DNA of 37,333 nucleotides from a virus. Lineage: Duplodnaviria > Heunggongvirae > Uroviricota > Caudoviricetes. Below, in pieces: positions 1 through 10,157 of the stretch. Location: IMG/VR virus record IMGVR_UViG_2563366859_000002. The stretch is one strand, 5' to 3'. Below the pieces are notes generated by a model. It did not search any database and was not told where the DNA came from. It saw only the letters and a program-made list of their open reading frames with translations. Each line of letters opens with the position of its first letter. Within the stretch, counting starts at the first letter, position 1. A program made the translations under genes and the position numbers.

Positions 1-91
1 GAGTCTTGAGTCTTGAGTCTTGAGTCTTGAGTCTTGAGTCTTGAGTCTTGAGTCTTGAGTCTTGAGTCTTGAGTCTTGAGTCTTGAGTCTT
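1..91 (-). repeat. Tandem heptanucleotide repeat GAGTCTT (AAGACTC on the coding strand), 13 complete copies, probably continuing past the left edge
   Basis: Perfect 7-bp periodicity from position 1 to 91, directly abutting an ATG on the minus strand at 94-96. Confidence 0.95.
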
Positions 92-96
92 GACAT
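1..96 (-). CDS. neuO: 5' end of polysialic acid O-acetyltransferase NeuO (partial, runs off the left edge); repeats encode RLKTQDS heptapeptides
   Basis: Reverse complement reads ATG TCA AGA CTC AAG ACT C...; position downstream of an endosialidase-type tailspike matches the known CUS-3 arrangement. Confidence 0.65.
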   Translation of the reverse strand, partial: MSRLKTQDSRLKTQDSRLKTQDSRLKTQDSRL

Positions 97-249
97 ATTA
101 GTATCCTACGTTATTTTACCACTAGTTACTTTTCTTGTCATTAAAAAGCATTTAAATTTTTATATTTAATTTCGTTGACGTCAATGTTTTTTGCCAATGT
201 ACTTACTTCTTTATGTGAGCAGTTCATATTTTTGACGCCAACGAAACAT
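97..249 (-). promoter_or_regulatory. AT-rich region between tailspike stop and neuO start, presumed neuO promoter/leader
   Basis: About 150 bp of AT-rich non-coding sequence immediately upstream of the neuO ATG. Confidence 0.3.
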
Positions 250-3195
250 TTAGTGCTTCCCTTCTATTAAGTCTAACCTAGCTTTTATTCTTTCTATTTC
301 TCTGCGCTGCCATGCCGCCTCGATATAGAATAAGAGATCAGGTCTGACCCCCCATCTAGATCCTGCTGGCGTTATTTCAACGCGCTCAATGATGTCTTCC
401 ATTACCATCACTGGATTATCATCCTCATCAACAATGATGCTCCCGTCATTATCAGTCAGCGGCATTTCCCTTTGGCCAGTAATGACGTCATCATATACTG
501 CGGGATAATCGTCATAGCAAAGAAAGGCATAGCGGCATGTTGTGCTTTCTTCTTCCATGAGTCCGTGAGAAATAAGAACATCACGAAGTTGCTGCGCGAT
601 TACACCATGATGTATCCTCGCCCCTTCTTCCCCCTTTATAGCGACAGCGTTCAGCCATTTATAAGCGATATACCTGACGTCACCCCAGGCATCCAGCAAT
701 TCTTCGTCAGGAGAGACCGGCTCTGTCTTTAATGTTCCGTCACTGGTAACCACAGGATTGGAGCCAAGATAAACTGTCGAGAACCTGTTTCCCGGACCAC
801 CAAGAGCATTTACATTATCAAGATAAGGTTTAACATCTCCGTTCTCAAAAAGATGTTCGAGTGCGTTATATACCGCGCGACGTGGAGTACTGCTTCCGGA
901 ACCATGCAACGTTATCATTGCACCATCTGCTGAAGACGTTGTTTCACCGCCGCTAACGATTAATCTCTGAGCGGTAACATCATCAGACGGTACTTTCTTC
1001 GCAATAATGGCGTAATTACCCTCAAGTTTGACTTCCGCGCGAACTTGTCCTGATGTACCTGCATGGACAGTCAGTGACTGGACGGCAACATCATCTGTGA
1101 AATCAACGGGTACAGGAACCGTCCTCACGCCTGACGTCGACATAAAAGTAGGAAGCGTTCTGTTAGGAGTGGCTCCGTAGACAAAATCCCTTGAAACAAA
1201 TTCTTCCTGTTTAATTTTCACCCTGAAACAATACAAATCAGCCGGGTGACCATCGTGAACATAAGGATATTTTCTGTTGTTATCCCCTATGCTCCATGGG
1301 TTTAGAAAGTCTTCCCCACCGAAAATGTAGTACAGCCAGTTGTCTTTGATACAAACTGAACCAACACCAACCGCAGAGTTAACTATTCCGCCCTGATAAA
1401 TCTGATCAGTAACATTAACCCACTCTACATTATCCAGACTCCACTCATTGACGTTAACTCTGGTCATAAATGTTCTTGGATAATTTCCTGCATAACGGTT
1501 ATCAGGTTCTCCTCCTTCCCACTCACCAAATGCGCGCTCACTGCCAAAAATAATCAGCTCATCGCCAACTTTGGCAAAAGGAAGGTTTGAGTGATGAACA
1601 TTATTTGGGAAGCGAAGAGAATTCCATGATGTACCTAAATCAGAGCTTCTGTGCAATGAACTACCGGGTTGAGTACTTAATGTCCCCCTGGTCGTCAGAT
1701 ACAGAATGCCATCATAATATTTTACACATGGCTCAGATGCATTCGCCTCATATTCTGCAGGTATGCGTCTGCGAACAAAGCTACCAGGAGAACCGAAAGC
1801 ATCAGAGAAATAGAGTATCCCAAGCTCGCGTGGGCCAATATCACCATTATGGTAGCCAACAGCAAAACTGTTATCGCTAATCGTCGCAAAACTGTGAATC
1901 TCAGTAACAGGAGTGCTTCCGTCAACAAAAGAAGGAATAGTTCCAAGACTGGTTTTTCTCCATGGTGACGAGTGAAATGATGTACCAAAACTCCAGTATC
2001 TACCCTCGTTATTCTGATCCACATCCTGGGTATTTTGCGTCGTAACTGTAAAAGTATTTTTATCAATAACAGTAGTCACCGTCATATTCCCGGTAACACC
2101 TGTAACACCAGAGTTTGAGAAGTTGACAAAATCACCAGCAAATAATCCGTGATCAGTAATGCGAATATAAGCGACTTGCTGATTTGCTGCTTTCGTTATA
2201 CCACCATAAACGCGAAGGCTGCGACTCATTGGGCGATCCCACAACTCTGCAACCTGCAGTTTATTTCCGCTCACGGTCCGCGTCTCAATTACAGCAAAAA
2301 GGCGATTTCTGACAACCCCCATACTCATGCAGTGATAGTTAACTGTGGGATAGTTTTCATGTAAATCTGTAAGCCATTCCGGCGTTGTCCAGGTCTTCCC
2401 GTCATCTCCTGAGCGAACCCATGCAACATGGAGGTTATTTACACCATGGCGGTCTCCAGCCATAAAAGGCGCATAGATGACATTGTCATATACAAACGTT
2501 TTATCCTGCGTCCAGGCGTTGTACCACGGTGTATCTGTAATTTTAAATAACTCTCCCTGGATAAAATCTTCAGAAGCATAAAAAAGAGGCTGACCCGGTA
2601 TTCTCTCAAATAAAAAACGAGCATTTTTAAATCGACTGACATCTGGAAGAGTTGATACTTTAAAAGTAAGCCCTCGCCCATCTATCTTTTCACCACCTGT
2701 TGCAACAGAAAGTAATTCTGATAGAGCTGATGTATCATCATGAACACCATCACCAATAGCCCCCCAACCTCTTACATCATAACTGTCTCTCCATCTTGCT
2801 ATCTGAAGTTTTGGGTATTTATTCGCTCCATCTGGGTCTTCTAATTGCTGCCGTAACTGATCAGGATCATACTTCAGCACATTCGGAAAATAGAACTGCT
2901 GTGTACCATACGCATCATAAACAGCCATAGAATGGCCTTGCACGGTTACGAACTTGGCAATCTGTCCGTTATATACCGGATATCCAGCGGCGTTAATGAT
3001 GATTGGTTGCGAAACAGGAACGTGAGAACCATCTTCGTTCTCAACATAGACCTGAATCTGGTTTTCAGGATTTACCGGGTCAGTGTCAATTTTACCGATA
3101 TAAATTTTGCCATTAGCTACGGCTTTAAAAGAACGCGCCATAGTGAAGAGTTGCGAAGGCATACTCACTACAACATTGGCTGTAATGTCTGTCAT
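250..3195 (-). CDS. Tailspike, 981 aa: P22 gp9-like head-binding N-domain, sialidase-like domain with two Asp-boxes (endosialidase-like), C-terminal chaperone-like domain
   Basis: N-terminus [11 protein letters not shown]...KYDPDQ matches P22 gp9; Asp-boxes SGDDGKTW (2389-2412) and SSDLGTSW (1624-1647); S-D at aa 818-819 before a conserved C-terminal domain. Confidence 0.85.
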
Positions 3196-3254
3196 TTAAT
3201 TTGCTCCAGATACAAGGAATCGCCGCAGCATGGCTACGGTTGGCATTTATTACA

Positions 3255-3267
3255 TACCGAAACGGTA
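3255..3267. promoter_or_regulatory. Palindrome TACCGAAACGGTA between divergent tailspike and mnt-like genes; candidate operator
   Basis: Perfect 5-bp arms around AAA in the 132-bp divergent intergenic region. Confidence 0.3.
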
Positions 3268-3327
3268 CGATTGTTGATTTGTACAGTAGGTTTTACGATG
3301 CCATTCCACCCATTTGGTGAGGCATTG

Positions 3328-3585
3328 ATGATGTACAGCAAATACGATGAGGCGCAGTTCCACTTGAGGCTTACACACGAGTTGCACGCTAAGATTAAGC
3401 AGCGTGCAAAAATGAATAACAGGTCTATCAATTCCGAAATTGTGGCTACGATGGAAGAATCACTCTCCAAACCATCACCTGTAAGCGGGTATCGTGATGA
3501 AGAAGAGAGGCTGGCCTCATTAATCTCGGAACGAGTAAAAGAAGTTGCGGCTGAAATTCTAAGGAAAGAAAAAACCCGCGATTAA
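3328..3585 (+). CDS. mnt: Mnt-like ribbon-helix-helix repressor, 85 aa
   Basis: RHH motif ...NNRSINSEIV... and C-terminus SKPSPVSGYRDEEERLA resemble P22 Mnt; SD GGTGAGG before ATGATG. Confidence 0.7.
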   Translation: MMYSKYDEAQFHLRLTHELHAKIKQRAKMNNRSINSEIVATMEESLSKPSPVSGYRDEEERLASLISERVKEVAAEILRKEKTRD

Positions 3586-3600
3586 GCGGGTTTAGTTTTC
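3565..3600. terminator. Rho-independent terminator between convergent mnt-like and antirepressor genes, strongest on the minus strand
   Basis: Stem AACCCGC/GCGGGTT with a long U-run on the minus-strand side and a shorter one on the plus side. Confidence 0.6.
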
Positions 3601-3611
3601 ATTATAAAATG

Positions 3612-4340
3612 TTACGCCACATTTGAGCCATGTAGCAGGTGTTGTAGTGCTTTAACGCCTTCAGAATTGTAACGGAACGCCTCTACCTGTTTGCTGGAAT
3701 GCGCCGATTTATCCAGGAAGAACTTCCCGTACTGCTCAGTTTTGAGGTTGTTTGCGTTAGCAATGCGACCAATCTTGTTGGCCGTTACTCCAAGCTGCTC
3801 TGCAACCTCCCCTGCTGAGTAGTAATGCTCTTCTATTGCCGGAAGAGGTATTGCATTAAAACCAACAAGCGGGTTGATTATACTTGCTGCCGCTGTCTGC
3901 TTTGCCTCAGGCGCAAGATTTGGCATCAGATCGAACAGATTGGTAACAGCTTCAACCGTCATTTTCAATGTTCGCGCTTGACGATACTCAACAAGTCCAC
4001 TCGCTGATTTACCGCTTTTAATGTGCGCTTCTTGCATACTTTCAAGTTGGTCTACCAGTGAGCGGCGAACGGCTTTTGACTCGCGAGCGGCAACTCGCAA
4101 TGCTTGCTTGATTGACATCTCAATGATAACCATCGAAGTTTTGTTCGCTTTTTGCACTACACTTTTTGTGTAGTGCTCTCCATCCAATTCATCTTCAATT
4201 TTCTCGATGAATTTGTTATTACGAACCTCCGGCTCACCGCACTGTCTACGAGCCTGATTTACCATCTCAAGCAGGCGCTGGCTGTCAATGGTTTTATCCG
4301 TGACAACGGATCCGATGTTTGCTACATTCTTAAAAGTCAT
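3612..4340 (-). CDS. Antirepressor-type regulatory protein, about 242 aa, KilA-C-like C-terminal domain
   Basis: Internal start MTFKNVANIG with SD AAGGAA; C-terminal YYSAGEVAEQLGV...NKIGRIA motif typical of phage Ant/KilAC proteins. Confidence 0.6.
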   Translation of the reverse strand: MTFKNVANIGSVVTDKTIDSQRLLEMVNQARRQCGEPEVRNNKFIEKIEDELDGEHYTKSVVQKANKTSMVIIEMSIKQALRVAARESKAVRRSLVDQLESMQEAHIKSGKSASGLVEYRQARTLKMTVEAVTNLFDLMPNLAPEAKQTAAASIINPLVGFNAIPLPAIEEHYYSAGEVAEQLGVTANKIGRIANANNLKTEQYGKFFLDKSAHSSKQVEAFRYNSEGVKALQHLLHGSNVA

Positions 4341-4410
4341 TAGGCATTCCTTATGTGGTAGTAAGGGTGTGACATAGGCCGCCAGCAGCACACTGGCGGT
4401 TTTCTTTTTG
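4335..4410 (+). ncRNA. Candidate sar-like antisense RNA (about 75 nt) covering the RBS and start of the antirepressor gene
   Basis: Plus-strand promoter-like GTGACA-17bp-TACATT (4300-4328) followed by a strong plus-strand-only terminator at 4379-4410, antisense to the gene start at 4340. Confidence 0.4.
4379..4410 (+). terminator. Rho-independent terminator on the plus strand inside the minus-strand ant region
   Basis: Stem GCCGCCAG/CTGGCGG(T), 7-nt loop, then TTTTCTTTTT; no U-run on the minus-strand reading. Confidence 0.6.
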
Positions 4411-4428
4411 CGCCGTCCGGCGCACCAA

Positions 4429-5055
4429 TCAATGAATCCATTCCTCGCCGCGCAGTTTTGCCAGCATTGGCTGAGCGTTCTTTACGACAAAATTGTTGGT
4501 ATCAAGATTCTTCATTTCACGAAGAAGTGATTTCTTGGTTTCTTCTGACATATAGCGAGTCTCATATGCGATATCGTAAATCCTTCCTGAAAGCTCAGAA
4601 CAAATTTGCTTCATTCCTGGGTAGATGTGTTTGCACATTTGTTGACTCTTCTCCATCCACAATTGTAAGTAGCAGAGATTAACCAGTTCTTCGTCAGTAA
4701 ACTGTTTTGCAATCGGTGAGCATTCTGCCTGCCGATCCAAAATATCCAGCACCCAGCGGCGGAACTCTTTGGCTACCGGAGTGCGAGCAAACATCGCGAT
4801 TAGGTGGGCACCGCGTAGTGAGAAAACTCGCACTTTTTTGCGATAATTTCCTGAGGTACTCACTTCGAGTACCTGAGTCATTCCGGCGCTAAACTCATCG
4901 CTATACTTGTTATAAATCATTGTTACTGCACGACTATTTGCGTATTTAAGTGCAGATGCAATATTAGATGATGTAAACCAAACACCATGCATATCACGGG
5001 TGGGCACCAACTCAACTCCGTGGAAGTTGTAATCTGATTTTGCTACAATATTCAT
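4429..5055 (-). CDS. Bro-N-like domain protein, about 208 aa, possible second antirepressor
   Basis: Internal start MNIVAKSDYNFHGVELV with SD AAGGAA; N-terminal region resembles Bro-N/Ant N-domains (GxWF...A.AL.Y.N). Track ORF N-extension rejected. Confidence 0.5.
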   Translation of the reverse strand: MNIVAKSDYNFHGVELVPTRDMHGVWFTSSNIASALKYANSRAVTMIYNKYSDEFSAGMTQVLEVSTSGNYRKKVRVFSLRGAHLIAMFARTPVAKEFRRWVLDILDRQAECSPIAKQFTDEELVNLCYLQLWMEKSQQMCKHIYPGMKQICSELSGRIYDIAYETRYMSEETKKSLLREMKNLDTNNFVVKNAQPMLAKLRGEEWIH

Positions 5056-5128
5056 GTTAGTTTCCTTGCATACGGTTACTGACATAGAGGCCCGGTTTGT
5101 GTTCGCGCACTGCCGGGCTTCACTATTT

Positions 5129-5296
5129 TTATGTCCTAGCATTCTTCTCTCCAATCAGTCCGTACACTTTTCTCAATTGATAAATAAGTTCCGTGTTGAA
5201 CTGTCGACACTCTTTTTCTCCATTTCTTTCAATCGCCTTCCTTACATCCTCTGGGAAACGAACCTTGCGTTGATACATGTCTTTTGCTTTTTCCAT
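5129..5296 (-). CDS. arc: Arc-like ribbon-helix-helix repressor, 55 aa (absent from the ORF track because under 60 aa)
   Basis: MEKAKDMYQRKVRFPEDVRKAIERNGEKECRQFNTELIYQL...; SD AAGGAG 5 nt before ATG; position first in the ant operon as in P22. Confidence 0.6.
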   Translation of the reverse strand: MEKAKDMYQRKVRFPEDVRKAIERNGEKECRQFNTELIYQLRKVYGLIGEKNART

Positions 5297-5313
5297 CTCC
5301 ACTCCTTAAATAG

Positions 5314-5376
5314 CCCCACTGTGGGGCAATTGAAATTGTCACACCGTGCGTCATTGAAGTCAACCCCACCGTGGGG
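5314..5376. promoter_or_regulatory. Two 13-bp palindromic operators (CCCCACTGTGGGG at 5314-5326; CCCCACCGTGGGG at 5364-5376) in back-to-back divergent promoters
   Basis: Plus promoter TTGAAG(5354-5359)-17bp-CATAAT(5377-5382) has an operator in the spacer; minus promoter TTGACT-17bp-GACAAT has an operator just after +1. Confidence 0.55.
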
Positions 5377-5419
5377 CATAATTTACTTATTGTGAATTTT
5401 TCCTGTTTGGACTAATGGT

Positions 5420-5794
5420 ATGAGTAGAGAAGACCCTCAACTTCGGATTAGGCTTCCTGTTGAATTAAAAAAAATAATTGAAGCGTCATCAAAACAAAAT
5501 AATCGTTCTATGAATGCTGAGATTGTCACTCTGCTTGAGTTGGCGATTCGTGTTTGTCGTGATTTTGGGCCGGAGGATGGTCCTATCGTTCAGCAGTTTA
5601 AAGAACAACTAGATGCGATAAACAGAAAATATGATAAAATCGAGCATGAAAAACTTATACCTCAACTTTTAGAAATCATAGAAAAACAGAAAAAACAAGT
5701 AGATAAACTTATTAGCATGGTTGAAAGATCAATTCCTCTTTCAGAGGAATATAAGCAGAAATATCTTGGTGATGACAACAAAAAACCCACCTGA
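5420..5794 (+). CDS. Mnt/Arc-family RHH repressor with extended coiled-coil C-terminus, 124 aa
   Basis: N-terminus MSREDPQLRIRLPVELKK...NNRSMNAEIV parallels P22 Mnt; divergent from arc, as mnt is in P22. Confidence 0.65.
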   Translation: MSREDPQLRIRLPVELKKIIEASSKQNNRSMNAEIVTLLELAIRVCRDFGPEDGPIVQQFKEQLDAINRKYDKIEHEKLIPQLLEIIEKQKKQVDKLISMVERSIPLSEEYKQKYLGDDNKKPT

Positions 5795-5819
5795 CGGTGG
5801 GTTAATTTTTGCCTTTTTT
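5784..5819 (+). terminator. Rho-independent terminator after the 124-aa RHH gene
   Basis: Stem ACCCACC/GGTGGGT followed by a T-rich tract. Confidence 0.6.
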
Positions 5820-5892
5820 GGACCATATTGACTACTCATAAAATGAGATCAATATTTAATCGCCCAATAACGGGTGTATGTTGAGGTATATC

Positions 5893-6072
5893 ATGGCGAA
5901 AAAACCAGGTGAAAACACAGGAAAAAACGGCGGAATATACCAAGAAGTTGGCCCACGCGGCGGTAAGAAAGACAATTTTGCCACCGTCAAGGACAACGAA
6001 AGGCTTCCGCCAACAACAAAGCCAGGTCATGGCTGGGTATTGGATAAGCGAACTCCAGACAGCAAAAAGTAA
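5893..6072 (+). CDS. Small YjzC-like protein, 59 aa
   Basis: MAKKPGENTGKNGGIYQEVGPRGG...; SD GAGGT; own promoter-like TTGACT-17bp-AATATT (5828-5856) with CTCAT/ATGAG inverted repeat in the spacer. Confidence 0.55.
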   Translation: MAKKPGENTGKNGGIYQEVGPRGGKKDNFATVKDNERLPPTTKPGHGWVLDKRTPDSKK

Positions 6073-6085
6073 TAATCAAGCCGGG

Positions 6086-6451
6086 TCACTCCGGCTTTTT
6101 GATATGTCGCTCGCAGAACTCAACAAGCCTGCTCATTAAGTAGCAGTAAGTCTCATTGGCTCTTCCTGGTTCAACATCAACACCGACCCTTGAGCAGATA
6201 TCGAATGCCATGTGAGCGCACTCATGGGCAATAGTAGATAGTTTGCCATTGAACACGCCTATCACATGCAAAACACCATTCTCGCTGCTCATTGTATGAG
6301 ACGCTCCGTTGGCATCCGAGTCCTGCACGTCCACACCAAGTTTTTGATGCAGGCGTTGCCATTCTGGAAAGTCTCTACAAAACACAATTGTACCGCTCTC
6401 AAAGAGCGGAACGAGCATCTTTGGTACGTTTCCAATGTTAACTTTTTTCAT
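6086..6451 (-). CDS. Hypothetical 121-aa protein with HExxH...E motif (possible small zinc metallopeptidase)
   Basis: Motif IAHECAHMAFD with Glu residues 14-20 aa downstream; the antisense plus-strand reading looks non-proteinaceous. Confidence 0.5.
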   Translation of the reverse strand: MKKVNIGNVPKMLVPLFESGTIVFCRDFPEWQRLHQKLGVDVQDSDANGASHTMSSENGVLHVIGVFNGKLSTIAHECAHMAFDICSRVGVDVEPGRANETYCYLMSRLVEFCERHIKKPE

Positions 6452-6481
6452 GGTATCCTGCTCAAAACTAAGGAGGTTGGT

Positions 6482-6709
6482 GTGAAGCGATGGTTCCTCA
6501 TAATTACTGTTTTCGCGATCATTTACGCTATTTTCCCTGCATTAAAAGCACCAATGCAAATAATTTCACTAGCAATAATTGCAATTGGTGCTTTCATTAC
6601 AGTATCCGTACTTGTGTTTAAGGTTTTAAAGTTTTTAGTTTGGCTATCAAAAGATGATGGATGCAAAGTTCATCAAGAAAAAGAAGGCAAAATAACCAAA
6701 GTTGACTAA
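6482..6709 (+). CDS. Small two-helix membrane protein, about 75 aa, GTG start
   Basis: Strong SD AAGGAGG 5 nt before GTG; two hydrophobic segments (FLIITVFAIIYAIF and IISLAIIAIGAFITVSVLVF). Start uncertain. Confidence 0.45.
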   Translation: MKRWFLIITVFAIIYAIFPALKAPMQIISLAIIAIGAFITVSVLVFKVLKFLVWLSKDDGCKVHQEKEGKITKVD

Positions 6710-8829
6710 CTGTCACTAGCGAGCCATGTAATAATCCCCGTGCGGGCAATGGTTTTTGCTTCATCTGTTGATAGGGTTTTCTCCCATCTCTTAAATGCCC
6801 CAGATTGCATCAGTTTCCTTTCTATTGCGCGTCTCACTTCTGCTCTGTCTACTGGTGCGTTTTGCAGGCGAAATAGCATTGATTTAAACTCAGGAGAAGA
6901 CAGTAGAGCATCAGCAGCCTTTATCCTGCTTGTTTTCCCTGACATCAATGCGGACGTTATCACCCCTGTTGCACCTACACCAGGAAGACCAGATAAGCTT
7001 GTAATACCTTCCGCCGCAGCAGCTTTTGAGGCTATTCCATAAATTTTTGCTAGACTACCCTTTTCCTTCAGAAAGTTATTAACTTGCTGATCCACAAGGC
7101 TGCTAGCATACTGCTTACCAGTATTGAGTCTATTCATAGCCTTGGCTGCTTGATAAATCGTATCAAGGCGCTTTGATGCATCTGTGCCAATAGCATCACG
7201 GAGAGTCTTCATATTGGCCCCATTGCGTGATATTCCGTTATACCATTTTACAAATCCATCAACCCCTAATTGCTGACCTGGTGATTTAGCATAGCTGGTA
7301 AATGCTTTATTCATTGAGGTGAGCACAACTTCCTGCCGCATATCCTTTGGAATTGACTTCATTAATTGCCTAAAGTCACCACCGTTTCCTTTTGCCATAT
7401 TAACAACGGCACTTTCAACTTTTGGAATTGCTGATTGCTGAAGTTTTCTACCCAAAACGGTTACGGCATCATCTTCAATGGATTTTCGTTTTTTTACCAA
7501 CTCCTTACCAAGCGTCCATAACTCCCCTGCGCCATATTTTTCTGCGACAGCCTGTTGGTCATCTGTTATAGCTGCATATAACTTTTTAAGAACACCTGTT
7601 TCTTCATCCTTGAATGGGCCAGAGCCTTTGCCAATAGCTTGCCCAACCTGCTTTCTGGCGAGATCTAAACGCCCATACGTTGGCAAGGTGTTTGGATCAA
7701 GTCGGTTCAATGTCCGCTTCATTATTGGAGATAATTCATCAATTCCACCTATGTCATCAGCAAAATCCTCTAAAAAATTCAATGTATTGGTTGCCTCAAT
7801 ACGGTCTCTTACTGGAACCTTTTCGGCAATTTTGTTGTAGATGTTATCTGACTGATTTTGTAATGATGAAATGGTTTTATCAAAATTATCTGCAAGCCTG
7901 TCAGAAACCAGTTGCTTATCAAGGTTTCCCCCAAATGAAGTTATCATTTCATCAGCTTTTCTTCCTAATTCAGTAATAAAGCGCTTATGCGCCTCACTAA
8001 TCTCTGTTCCAGGAAGACTTGCCACTGCATTATCAAGAGCCCTGACAGCAGGATTATTAGAGATCATTCCTGGAGTGGCATAATTTTCCAGTTCTAGCTC
8101 ACGGATGGCATTTATCGCGTTAAAATCAGGATTAACTTCATCGGCGAAACCTTGAATAGCTCGTTGCCCGCCAATAAATTTATTATCCATTGCGCCAGCA
8201 GCTTTCTTTAACGTTGCTTTAGATGATTTACTCCCCATCCCTACGGATGAGCGATAAATATCCCCGGCACTATTTTTAATTTTTCCTGCAATCTTCCCAA
8301 GCGCTGGACCAACAATCTCGGCTACAGGGCCAGCCACAGCGCCAATAGCAGCGCCGGAAGCAACATCGCTATTTGTTCCATTGGCTACAATAGCCCCTTC
8401 TCCAGCACCAAGCCCTGCGGCGGCAGCCAGCCTTGCCGCCCCTTTCGGAACCTGAGAAATAATCCCACCACCACTAACAAATGGCGCGGCTTGTCCAACA
8501 AACTCACCAACATCTTGTGCGGTTGATGGTTTTGCCGCTAACTTCTGCTGTAGAGACTGAATTGCGGCTTGCTCTTCTGGTGTCATATCCTGAAACAGGC
8601 CAACACCTTTACCAACATCCATCAATCCACTGAGAACGCCATACATAAAACGGTCGAAGCCGTTAGCATTATTAACAACATTTTCCTGTCTGGAATTTTC
8701 CTCTGGTGAAACCAAAGGAGATTGCTGCTGTTCTGGTTGGGCATCAAGCACAAAGCCATCAGGAAGCTGTGAGTTATCAGGCTGATTATCGAGAACAAAG
8801 CCTTCGGGTAAACCTACATCGGTTGCCAT
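6706..8829 (-). CDS. Ejection/internal virion protein, P22 gp16-like, 707 aa
   Basis: Position last in the ejection-protein trio before the accessory region; large Ala/Gly-rich protein. Confidence 0.65.
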
Positions 8830-10157
8830 TGTCCGTTCCTGTAAATGAGTTTCTGACCAGTTTTAGGGTTCGTTGCCGTCGCGCCTTCTGATATCCCACT
8901 TGGCGCAGCTTTTGTCTGCCCATTACCACCTTGTGGTGTAGGCTGCGCTGGGACATCGTCAAATAGCTTGGCCTTCCTTCTCCCTAAGCTTTTTTTCAGC
9001 CCCTGAGGAATAGTATCTCCATACGTATCCAGATATTCGTCTACCTGCTGGTTAAACTGCTGCCCCATAGCGTTGGCGTTAATTTTTGCTGCGTTAACAA
9101 TGTTATCCCTCGCTTCCTGTGACAAGCCATTCCCTGCATTAAGCTGGTCTACATATCCTTTTATCTGCCCCCATATGCCATCAGAGCGCATAACCTGAAC
9201 CTGTTCACCTTCGCGAACAACTGACTGAGGGTCGAGAGACTTCATGTAATTAAAGATAATCCCAAGTTGGGCAGCGCCAGTATTTACCTTGCTAAGGGCT
9301 TGCAGAGAGTTTGCCGCCGCTCTGACAGAGTTATAATTTTTACCAAAATTGGTAATGTCAGAATTTAATCCCTTAATTAATTCTGCTGACGGCTTACCTT
9401 TTTGCCCCAGCTCCATTAGCTTCAATCCCATCTCATCTGAGTGCATTTGTGCCCGCTGAGCCCTGTCTAGTTGAGCGTTCTGGATATTTGCCCATCCTCT
9501 CTCGTTCTCCATGTCAGCCTGACGGATGCTTTCATCCAATCGCCCTTTCTCAATTTCACGACCAGCTATCTTGTCCTGAACAGCAAACGCCTTTTCTGGC
9601 CCAAGTGCACCGAGAGACATAGTAGTCAGCATGTGTGATAGCTGCTCTGGATTCTGAATACCTGTCTGAATCATCCAGTCAGCATTCGCCCCCACGCGAT
9701 TTAACCTGTCCTTGTTATCAGTAATGAATTTACTGTAGGCTTCCGGTCCCTGAGAAAGAGCGACGTTAGCCCTCATGGCTAAATCGCCCATATCGTTGCG
9801 TTGCTGCTCATTAAGACCGGAAAATGCCTGTTGTGCCTGTGCAACAAACGCTGGATTTTCCTGGGCAAACTTAAATAGTCCCGATGGATCACCAGAAGCC
9901 CATGCATCAGCGTGAACCTTATTGAACGCACTAATCGCTTTCTGTTGCTGTTCCTGCTTATAAATATCAGCAACTCCAGCCAGACCACGTAATGCGGTCA
10001 GACCAACGTTATTTGCACCTGATCGAGCCAGTTCATTGTTTTCGCGGATCAGACCAAGCGTTGCGTTAATGTCGCTTGCCTTTGGCGCATTCTCATTTTG
10101 CGTACCGATGCCAGCCAGAAAACCACCAGAATTAATACCCTGTTGCCACGTAGCCAT
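8814..10157 (-). CDS. Ejection protein, P22 gp20-like, 447 aa
   Basis: Synteny between gp7-like and gp16-like genes; size and composition. Confidence 0.65.

Follow-up and report, generated by a model that had tools for sequence, protein, structure and literature searches.

The small gene that adjoins the tailspike gene of this prophage most likely encodes a functional Mnt-family repressor, with a ribbon-helix-helix (RHH) DNA-binding domain and a C-terminal oligomerisation helix. In the reading that we prefer as a whole, with a rough probability of 0.6, the gene would stand in the configuration known from phages L and ST64T, where mnt comes last before the tailspike gene and diverges from it, with an operator and a promoter of its own, in a region that has lost arc and ant from this side; the protein would probably regulate its own synthesis, and it would not be the regulator of the antirepressor genes nearby. 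Its identification as a Mnt-type repressor is made with high confidence, and its target would be its own operator (of the type called class A below) at its own promoter. The window (i.e., the whole stretch of 37,333 nucleotides that was analysed) is a CUS-3-like, P22-type prophage of E. coli K1, and the range considered here, 3196-3585, comprises the mnt gene together with the 132-bp intergenic spacer that it has in common with the tailspike gene. Table 1 gives the position of each feature.

Table 1. Positions of the features discussed, in window coordinates.
Feature	Position	Strand	Basis or remark
Endosialidase-type tailspike gene (981 aa)	250-3195	-	N-terminal head-binding domain linked to the mnt module
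Hairpin CCGUAGC-CAU-GCUGCGG in the tailspike leader	3223-3239	-	Relatives with compensatory stem variants
Predicted Mnt operator CATACCGAAACGGTACG, 17-bp dyad, core TACC-N5-GGTA at 3255-3267	3253-3269		Uniqueness, fixed offset, position of P22 Omnt
Predicted mnt promoter: -35 TTGTTG (3271-3276), 17-bp spacer, -10 TACGAT (3294-3299)	3271-3299	+	Position-weight scan, conservation
Shine-Dalgarno GGTGAGG of mnt	3316-3322	+	Sequence reading; conserved in relatives
mnt homologue (85 aa)	3328-3585	+	ORF list, Pfam/PHROG/PDB matches, purifying selection
Predicted bidirectional intrinsic terminator, for mnt (+) and the convergent antirepressor gene (-)	3572-3593		Prediction on both strands
Separate antirepressor cassette, apparently not part of the mnt module	3612-5794		Family matches, palindromes, promoter-like sites
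ant2	3612-4340	-	
ant1	4429-5055	-	
Arc-like gene	5129-5296	-	
CCCCAC-N-GTGGGG palindromes	5314-5326 and 5364-5376		
Divergent promoter-like sites of the ant cassette	5335-5382		
RHH gene (124 aa), in the P22 mnt slot	5420-5794	+	

What sets Mnt apart from Arc is homology that runs past the RHH, through the linker and the C-terminal helix, and this is what the 85-aa protein has. Its N-terminal RHH, with the beta-strand QFHLRL, is joined by the linker SKPSPVSGYRD to a C-terminal helix whose homology is with the tetramerisation region of Mnt, and the protein would form tetramers. Residues 8-53 match the Pfam Arc profile (PF03869; E = 3e-15, 56.1 bits against a curated cut-off of 20.4), residues 7-78 match PDB 1MNT (E = 9e-16), and the match to phrog_795 spans the full protein (E = 7e-33). 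Under BLASTP the identity with P22 Mnt is 45% over 73 aa (residues 7-79, 70 bits), SKPSPVSGYR included. The 124-aa protein encoded in the P22 mnt slot, in contrast, resembles P22 Mnt over its N-terminal 43 residues only (33%, 39 bits; 1MNT E = 0.0016), and the match stops there, short of the linker and the C-terminal helix. The first-pass annotation, which had taken the 85-aa protein for the one nearest to P22 Mnt in the window and its gene for divergent from the tailspike gene, is thereby borne out. With P22 Arc the protein shares the fold family PF03869; unlike it, Arc is a 53-aa dimer without a C-terminal tetramerisation domain, its 21-bp operator lies inside the promoter spacer, and the Arc-like gene of the window is another ORF altogether. 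Since most relatives begin MYSKY, the true start of mnt may be the second in-frame ATG, at 3331, rather than the one at 3328. An N-terminal extension from an ATG at 3298 (MPFHPF...) was rejected: the codon falls within the predicted -10, and among the relatives it does not keep the same frame with respect to mnt. At the other end of the gene, the stop codon sits in the loop of the predicted terminator.

The spacer carries the palindrome TACCGAAACGGTA at 3255-3267, exactly as the first-pass annotation had described it. Its pattern, TACC-N5-GGTA, occurs once in the 37,333 bases of the window, where 0.15 copies would be expected, and by our own arithmetic its chance of occurring in the 132-bp spacer is about 5e-4. 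When the whole window was searched for RTACC-N5-GGTAY with up to two mismatches, 24 matches were obtained against 23.5 expected, none of them between 3600 and 5900. The palindrome is found at a fixed offset in all the related loci examined, including 79 of the 79 class-A loci found by protein homology. The arms TACC/GGTA and the central AAA are conserved among the relatives, and the inner G (G/T/A) and the inner C (C/T) vary; these two variable positions are those that make the 13-mer a perfect palindrome. Aligned to the annotated P22 record, the predicted operator occupies the position of Omnt relative to Pmnt, and because that record names the elements in this alignment as its mnt operator and mnt promoter, the palindrome can be read as the positional homologue of P22 Omnt. 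Going by this anatomy and comparison, the gene has a further mark of the Mnt family, namely a single dyad operator of about 17 bp beside the -35 of its own promoter.

Between the predicted operator and the -35 hexamer there is a single base pair (A). The promoter predicted for mnt is the best promoter-like site of the spacer, although weak, with 8.8 bits in the position-weight matrix where the best sites of random 196-bp segments of this sequence have a median of 7.9. Read in the sense of mnt, one layout is common to P22, ST64T and the window, operator(17)-A-TTGnnn-17-TAnnAT, followed by the leader, the Shine-Dalgarno sequence and the ATG. In P22, where the mnt operator and promoter are annotated, it runs AGGTCCACCGTGGACCT, A, TTGAGA, 17 bp and TATCAT; in ST64T it runs AAGACCACGGTGGTCTT, A, TTGTGG, 17 bp and TATGAT; and in the window CATACCGAAACGGTACG is followed by A, TTGTTG, 17 bp and TACGAT. 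Measured from the operator centre, the -10 stands at +33 whether the operator is of one class or the other, and our alignment puts it there in the annotated Pmnt of P22 too. Sf101-type spacers have the same promoter hexamers just 15 bp apart. In the column profile of 74 distinct class-A spacers, conservation is 90-100% in the operator arms, the central AAA, the ATTG, the -10 and the leader, but only 40-60% in the 40 bp on the tailspike side of the operator. Further towards the tailspike gene, the hairpin lies within a conserved stretch annotated as boundary sequence bsq1 in the CUS-3 record; it is 13 bp away from the operator and bounds the mnt module on the left. An Rfam search of positions 1-9000 gave no credible RNA family match.

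The residues with which the protein would read DNA are not those of P22 Mnt. In place of Arg2, His6, Asn8 and Arg10 the window has Tyr, Gln, His and Arg (i.e., class A differs by Arg2 to Tyr, His6 to Gln and Asn8 to His, Arg10 being kept); Knight and Sauer are said to have shown that these four positions determine the specificity of P22 Mnt, and three of them are thus changed in class A. The operators differ as well, with a core of GGTCCAC-N-GTGGACC in P22 against TACC-N5-GGTA in the window, and the C-terminal helix is divergent in sequence (LISERVKEVAAEILRKEK). Over 87 loci the pairing of strand and operator is complete: QFHLRL (class A) goes with TACC-N5-GGTA in 79 of 79, and QFNLRL (class B) with GACCAC-N-GTGGTC in 8 of 8. 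This holds whichever of three types of C-terminal domain is attached, each class occurring with all three, and the recombination joint between the N- and C-terminal types lies in the conserved linker SKPSPVSGYRD. Where the arm is R(D/E)DP, as in P22 Mnt, in class B and in the 124-aa protein of the window, the core alongside is always CCAC-N-GTGG. Class A would, on these grounds, be an altered-specificity allele, in which the beta-strand residues and the operator both differ from those of P22. The operator is about 70 bp from the N-terminal codons, and their co-inheritance could reflect linkage instead of selection for binding. Within a repressor family that is well known, the gene stands as an uncharacterised specificity variant.

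Set beside P22, the unit of the window is alike in the two-domain architecture of its protein, in having a 17-bp dyad one base pair from its own -35, and in transcription of mnt directed away from the tailspike gene. It is unlike P22 immI in that arc and ant are missing between the operator and the tailspike gene and the equivalent of Pant is degenerate; an operator overlapping the start of a strong divergent antirepressor promoter, which characterises a P22-type immI, is absent from the window. The ant morons of phages L, ST64T, ST104, ST160 and SE1, by comparison, hold mnt without ant (Villafane 2008, Zaworski 2020). In the L/ST64T group, as in the window, mnt adjoins gene 9 divergently across a spacer of about 130-135 bp, with the same operator-promoter geometry and a degenerate Pant remnant. 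The spacers of ST64T and ST160 align with that of the window, the left 45 bp being nearly identical and the operator and promoter at the same positions, and mnt lies upstream of and divergent from the tailspike gene in all of them. The window differs from this group in two respects. The strand of the latter is of class B (RDDPQFNLRLP, with the operator AAGACCAC-N-GTGGTCTT), and their interval from gene 16 to gene 9 is without an antirepressor, whereas the window has a complete antirepressor cassette between mnt and gene 16, with two ant-family and two further RHH genes.

The first-pass annotation had noted that the gene is away from the canonical mnt position and had regarded two Mnt-family repressors in one immI region as unusual, a view that the wider survey does not sustain. 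Phages L, ST64T and ST104 have been published with just such a mnt gene, beside the tailspike gene and transcribed away from it (PMC2629481, PMC8022706); ST64T is 99.9% identical to phage L (PMC8022706), and ST64T, ST104 and Para1 have only mnt and one unknown gene there (Villafane et al., PMC2629481). We find the same adjacency and divergence in JEP4, VSe13, Sf101, IME10, vB_EcoP-720R6, ST64T and ST160. In IMG/VR, a protein-based scan sampled 80 loci and an operator-pattern scan at least 119 more, which together yield at least about 140 distinct 1.6-kb neighbourhoods with the mnt-tailspike arrangement. Among the operator-pattern matches listed there are 109 class-A mnt loci, in 105 of which the start of the tailspike gene is directly adjacent; the remaining four comprise three with too short a flank and one (L177) with a 3' fragment of ant, and among those with flank enough to judge, none has class-A mnt in the full P22-style mnt-arc-ant arrangement. 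At least 80% of the spacer plus mnt gene is also held by 64 of 5,426 complete E. coli genomes. As for the second repressor, the annotation of the CUS-3 reference record lists two mnt genes, and at least 12 of 85 surveyed loci have, at the distal end of the region, another gene of the Arc/Mnt family. The arrangement is therefore widespread in P22-like phages of E. coli, Shigella and Salmonella, and had already been documented for L and ST64T.

CUS-3 itself (CP000711) resembles the window in being P22-like, with an endosialidase tailspike, neuO, and two Arc/Mnt-family genes plus an antirepressor between gene 16 and the tailspike gene. Its two mnt genes, however, are in tandem at the gene-16 side, its ant abuts the boundary sequence of the tailspike, and neither of its Mnt proteins has the class-A strand. 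With a 2.8-kb query, only 141 bases at the tailspike end (window 3100-3240) were found in common.

The simplest origin for the arrangement is a P22-like immI region from which arc-ant was lost. The boundary hairpin sequence is present in two copies in P22 (after ant and before gene 9) and in a single one in the window. Moreover, one IMG/VR contig (recovered twice, as L063 and L177) keeps the last 110 codons, i.e., the 3' third, of a P22-type ant together with its terminator, between a class-A operator and the tailspike gene, and this remnant looks like a deletion intermediate.

The antirepressor genes of the window, on the other side of mnt, do not seem to be regulated by the 85-aa protein. 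They appear to form a separate, mobile cassette, with an RHH pair and CCCCAC-N-GTGGGG operators of its own: one of these palindromes covers the predicted start of the ant-directed promoter, and the other is within the spacer of the promoter of the 124-aa gene. The operator predicted for the 85-aa protein is, judging from this anatomy, distinct from the CCCCAC palindromes and belongs to a promoter separate from that of the antirepressor genes. Among 85 related loci, the region from mnt to gene 16 is empty in about 25, and the others have varied ant cassettes with a regulator of their own, either an Arc-like plus a second RHH gene or a small protein plus a C2-like repressor.

Several other readings of the gene were weighed against this one. 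The first-pass annotation had proposed that the protein represses a promoter in the spacer which drives the tailspike gene and, by read-through, neuO, and so keeps both under lysogenic control. That the operator lies between mnt and the start of the tailspike gene, that the homologous operator of P22 covers the start of Pant, from which transcription extends to gene 9, and that mnt is under purifying selection in the roughly 25 of 85 loci without any antirepressor, where some target is needed, all speak for it, and Villafane et al. 2008 raised, as a speculation, an influence of Mnt and Arc on transcription that enters the tailspike gene (PMC2629481). We nevertheless hold this proposal to be unlikely. 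The best sigma-70-like promoter facing the tailspike gene in the spacer of the window reaches 5.8 bits, which is below the background median of 7.9 and far below the 17.1 of P22 Pant; across 80 distinct related spacers the median of the best tailspike-directed sites is 6.8 bits, with no shared position and none above background. Where P22 Pant has TTGACA-17-TATATT (17.1 bits), the window has ATGGCA-17-CAAATC and ST64T has TCGGCA-17-TATATC, which would be recognisable but disabled remnants of it. The class-A mnt-operator module, being fixed to the conserved head-binding domain, adjoins dozens of unrelated tailspike receptor-binding domains, and the neuO repeats are found, among the loci carrying the module, in the endosialidase cluster only. 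In the window, whose start (1-94, minus strand) lies inside the AAGACTC repeats of neuO, this gene has its own upstream region (150 bp, 99-249), a minus-strand terminator at 3593-3572 separates the ant genes from the tailspike gene, and neuO has been reported to be under the control of the host factor DsdC (PMC9659370). Given the missing promoter, the variety of the tailspikes and the upstream region that neuO has to itself, control of the tailspike gene or neuO by Mnt is not supported. Nor is it probable, to about the same degree, that the 85-aa protein is the true maintenance repressor of the ant genes, acting at the ant promoter (5335-5363) and leaving the 124-aa protein to another job. It does come nearer to P22 Mnt than any other protein of the window, and at most 30 bp lie between its gene and where the ant operon ends; but three of the four Mnt specificity residues are changed in its DNA-reading strand, the ant cassette (3600-5900) has no TACC-N5-GGTA-like site with up to two mismatches, and the ant promoter is flanked by CCCCAC-N-GTGGGG palindromes, which fit the R(D/E)DP-type arm of the 124-aa protein encoded next to them. 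In the relatives, besides, the same mnt occurs alongside differing ant cassettes, of which some include a C2-like repressor, and also where there is no cassette.

A decaying immI remnant without present function is what one might expect from the disappearance of arc, ant and Pant from the mnt side of the region and from the existence of a deletion intermediate, and Zaworski et al. state that the mnt-like gene of phage L could be a remnant (PMC8022706). The sequences of the gene make this very unlikely. As many as 174 of the 177 recovered mnt ORFs are of full length (83-88 aa), the exceptions being two truncated to 31 aa and one 203-aa fusion, and in the N-terminal DNA-binding domain pN is 0.049 against a pS of 0.49 (pN/pS of about 0.1), with up to 17-22 synonymous differences between alleles; the window and L066, for instance, differ in this domain by 17 synonymous and two non-synonymous changes. 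The operator arms and promoter hexamers, too, are nearly invariant while the adjacent spacer varies. The mnt gene is under strong purifying selection, and hence functional. That the function could be that of an RHH antitoxin (of the HicB or FitA type) or of a ParG-like partition protein is hardly credible, even though there are weak Pfam matches to HicB (E = 9e-6) and to a FitA-like RHH (E = 1e-4) and the database names for the family include 'partition protein ATPase'. The former reflect the generic RHH fold only, and are far below the Arc/Mnt score; as to the latter, RefSeq labels P22 mnt itself 'partition protein ATPase', which is an annotation error. No toxin or ParA gene is adjacent, let alone co-transcribed, since mnt is monocistronic, flanked by the start of the tailspike gene and the terminator in which it ends.

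We thus return to a Mnt repressor with its own operator and promoter, and to what it could do there. As in P22, the 85-aa protein would most likely bind the single 17-bp dyad, which is predicted to lie one bp from the -35 of mnt's own promoter, the module as a whole being the mnt/Omnt/Pmnt unit of P22 after arc and ant, which had stood between operator and tailspike gene, were lost and Pant decayed. Binding would probably set the level of the protein itself (i.e., autoregulation), and may also silence residual leftward initiation. Vershon et al. 1987 reportedly observed that P22 Mnt stimulates Pmnt just indirectly, by shutting Pant. If this is so, an operator at about -45 in a spacer without Pant may do little in cis, in which case its strong conservation would lack a full explanation, and there would be room for an effect in trans or on transcription passing through the spacer. 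The protein could, for example, act in trans on another genome with the same operator. No such target turned up among the listed IMG/VR operator-pattern matches, of which ten are without an adjacent mnt; nine of these are chance matches in unrelated contigs, and the tenth (L121) is in a contig that ends just past the operator.

A related thought is that class-A Mnt and its operator are a conserved stand-alone module with a job unlike that of P22 Mnt, either the tuning of tailspike transcription or immunity in trans against antirepression, which we regard as rather doubtful, if somewhat easier to entertain than the other departures from our preferred reading. The strong purifying selection is seen in well over a hundred P22-like phages, many of them without an antirepressor. 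Tuning could take the form of a roadblock, or of head-on interference with the late-operon polymerases that come from the gene-16 side; anti-antirepressor immunity would shield the prophage against induction by superinfecting relatives.

In conclusion, the results of this work leave the understanding of tailspike and neuO regulation unchanged, and bear instead on how the region is built and on how Mnt-type repressors recognise DNA. Rather than one immI with a spare repressor, the region would be a composite of two modules: a mnt-operator unit of the L/ST64T type, which stays with the tailspike head-binding domain, and an exchangeable antirepressor cassette that brings its own regulators. To the classic model of beta-sheet DNA recognition it adds what may be a natural altered-specificity pair (QFHLRL with TACC-N5-GGTA), together with natural domain-swap recombinants that could be used for testing the rules of specificity. 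Finally, on the question posed by the phage L literature of why mnt is kept in phages without an antirepressor, the selection data argue against simple decay.

Among the related mnt loci surveyed, the mnt genes of L054, L070-L074 and L075-L086 are natural domain-swap recombinants, in which the class of the N-terminal DNA-binding part and that of the C-terminal oligomerisation part assort independently, the joint lying within the conserved linker SKPSPVSGYRD. An erroneous annotation has spread through this family: its proteins, including P22 mnt itself in RefSeq (NC_002371.2), phrog_795 and Sf101_0014, are named 'partition protein ATPase' or 'chromosome segregation ATPase', although P22 Mnt is an 83-aa DNA-binding repressor.

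In the window, mnt converges on the antirepressor gene and shares a terminator with it, in whose hairpin loop the mnt stop codon (3583-3585) is found. Further into the ant cassette, two almost identical palindromes, GCCCCACTGTGGGGC and CCCCACCGTGGGG, both lie on divergent promoter-like sites, a layout similar to that of the P22 ant promoter and mnt operator (Pant/Omnt), except that here a single operator type is present twice. Two small genes of unknown function separate the cassette from gene 16, and the HExxH motif (HECAH) of the longer product suggests, from its sequence, a small metalloprotease.

Coordinates of features in the window and in the related mnt loci L063 and L177, which are the same contig
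Feature	Position	Strand	Remarks
neuO ATG	96-98	-	
AT-rich 150-bp region	99-249		between neuO ATG and tailspike gene end
7-bp hairpin CCGUAGC-CAU-GCUGCGG	3223-3239	- (RNA)	tailspike leader
Bidirectional terminator	3572-3593	both	common to convergent mnt and antirepressor genes
Palindrome GCCCCACTGTGGGGC	5313-5327		within 5303-5419
Palindrome CCCCACCGTGGGG	5364-5376		within 5303-5419
Promoter-like site TTGACT-17-GACAAT	5303-5419 region		directed at Arc-like and ant genes
Promoter-like site TTGAAG-17-CATAAT	5303-5419 region		directed at 124-aa RHH gene
59-aa protein, phrog_3202	5893-6072	+	
121-aa protein, phrog_1365	6086-6451	-	
ant remnant, L063	411-743		
ant remnant, L177	414-743		

The window begins in neuO (1-98, - strand), within its heptanucleotide repeat (1-94), with at least 13 copies of GAGTCTT, read as AAGACTC on the coding strand.

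The hairpin of the tailspike leader falls within a conserved stretch, annotated as boundary sequence bsq1 in the CUS-3 record, and its stem shows compensatory variants in relatives (CCGCAGC/GCUGUGG and ACGCAUC/GAUGUGG). It is absent from the short spacers of the Sf101 type, and P22 has it twice, between ant and gene 9, the tailspike gene. The hairpin may mark a recombination joint or serve to stabilise or process the mRNA.

In phage JEP4 (L001 2323-2520), a pseudo-start left over from the standard tailspike gene (CTGTCAT followed by TTAATTTGCTCC) persists; the actual tailspike gene of this phage is a different one and starts some 190 bp away. Evidently the tailspike was swapped out and the mnt module left in place. 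L063 and L177 still have the last third (3' end) of an ant gene of the P22 type (110 aa, 92% identical), together with its terminator, between the operator of a class-A mnt (strand QFHLRL, predicted operator TACC-N5-GGTA) and the tailspike gene, apparently a halfway stage in arc-ant loss.
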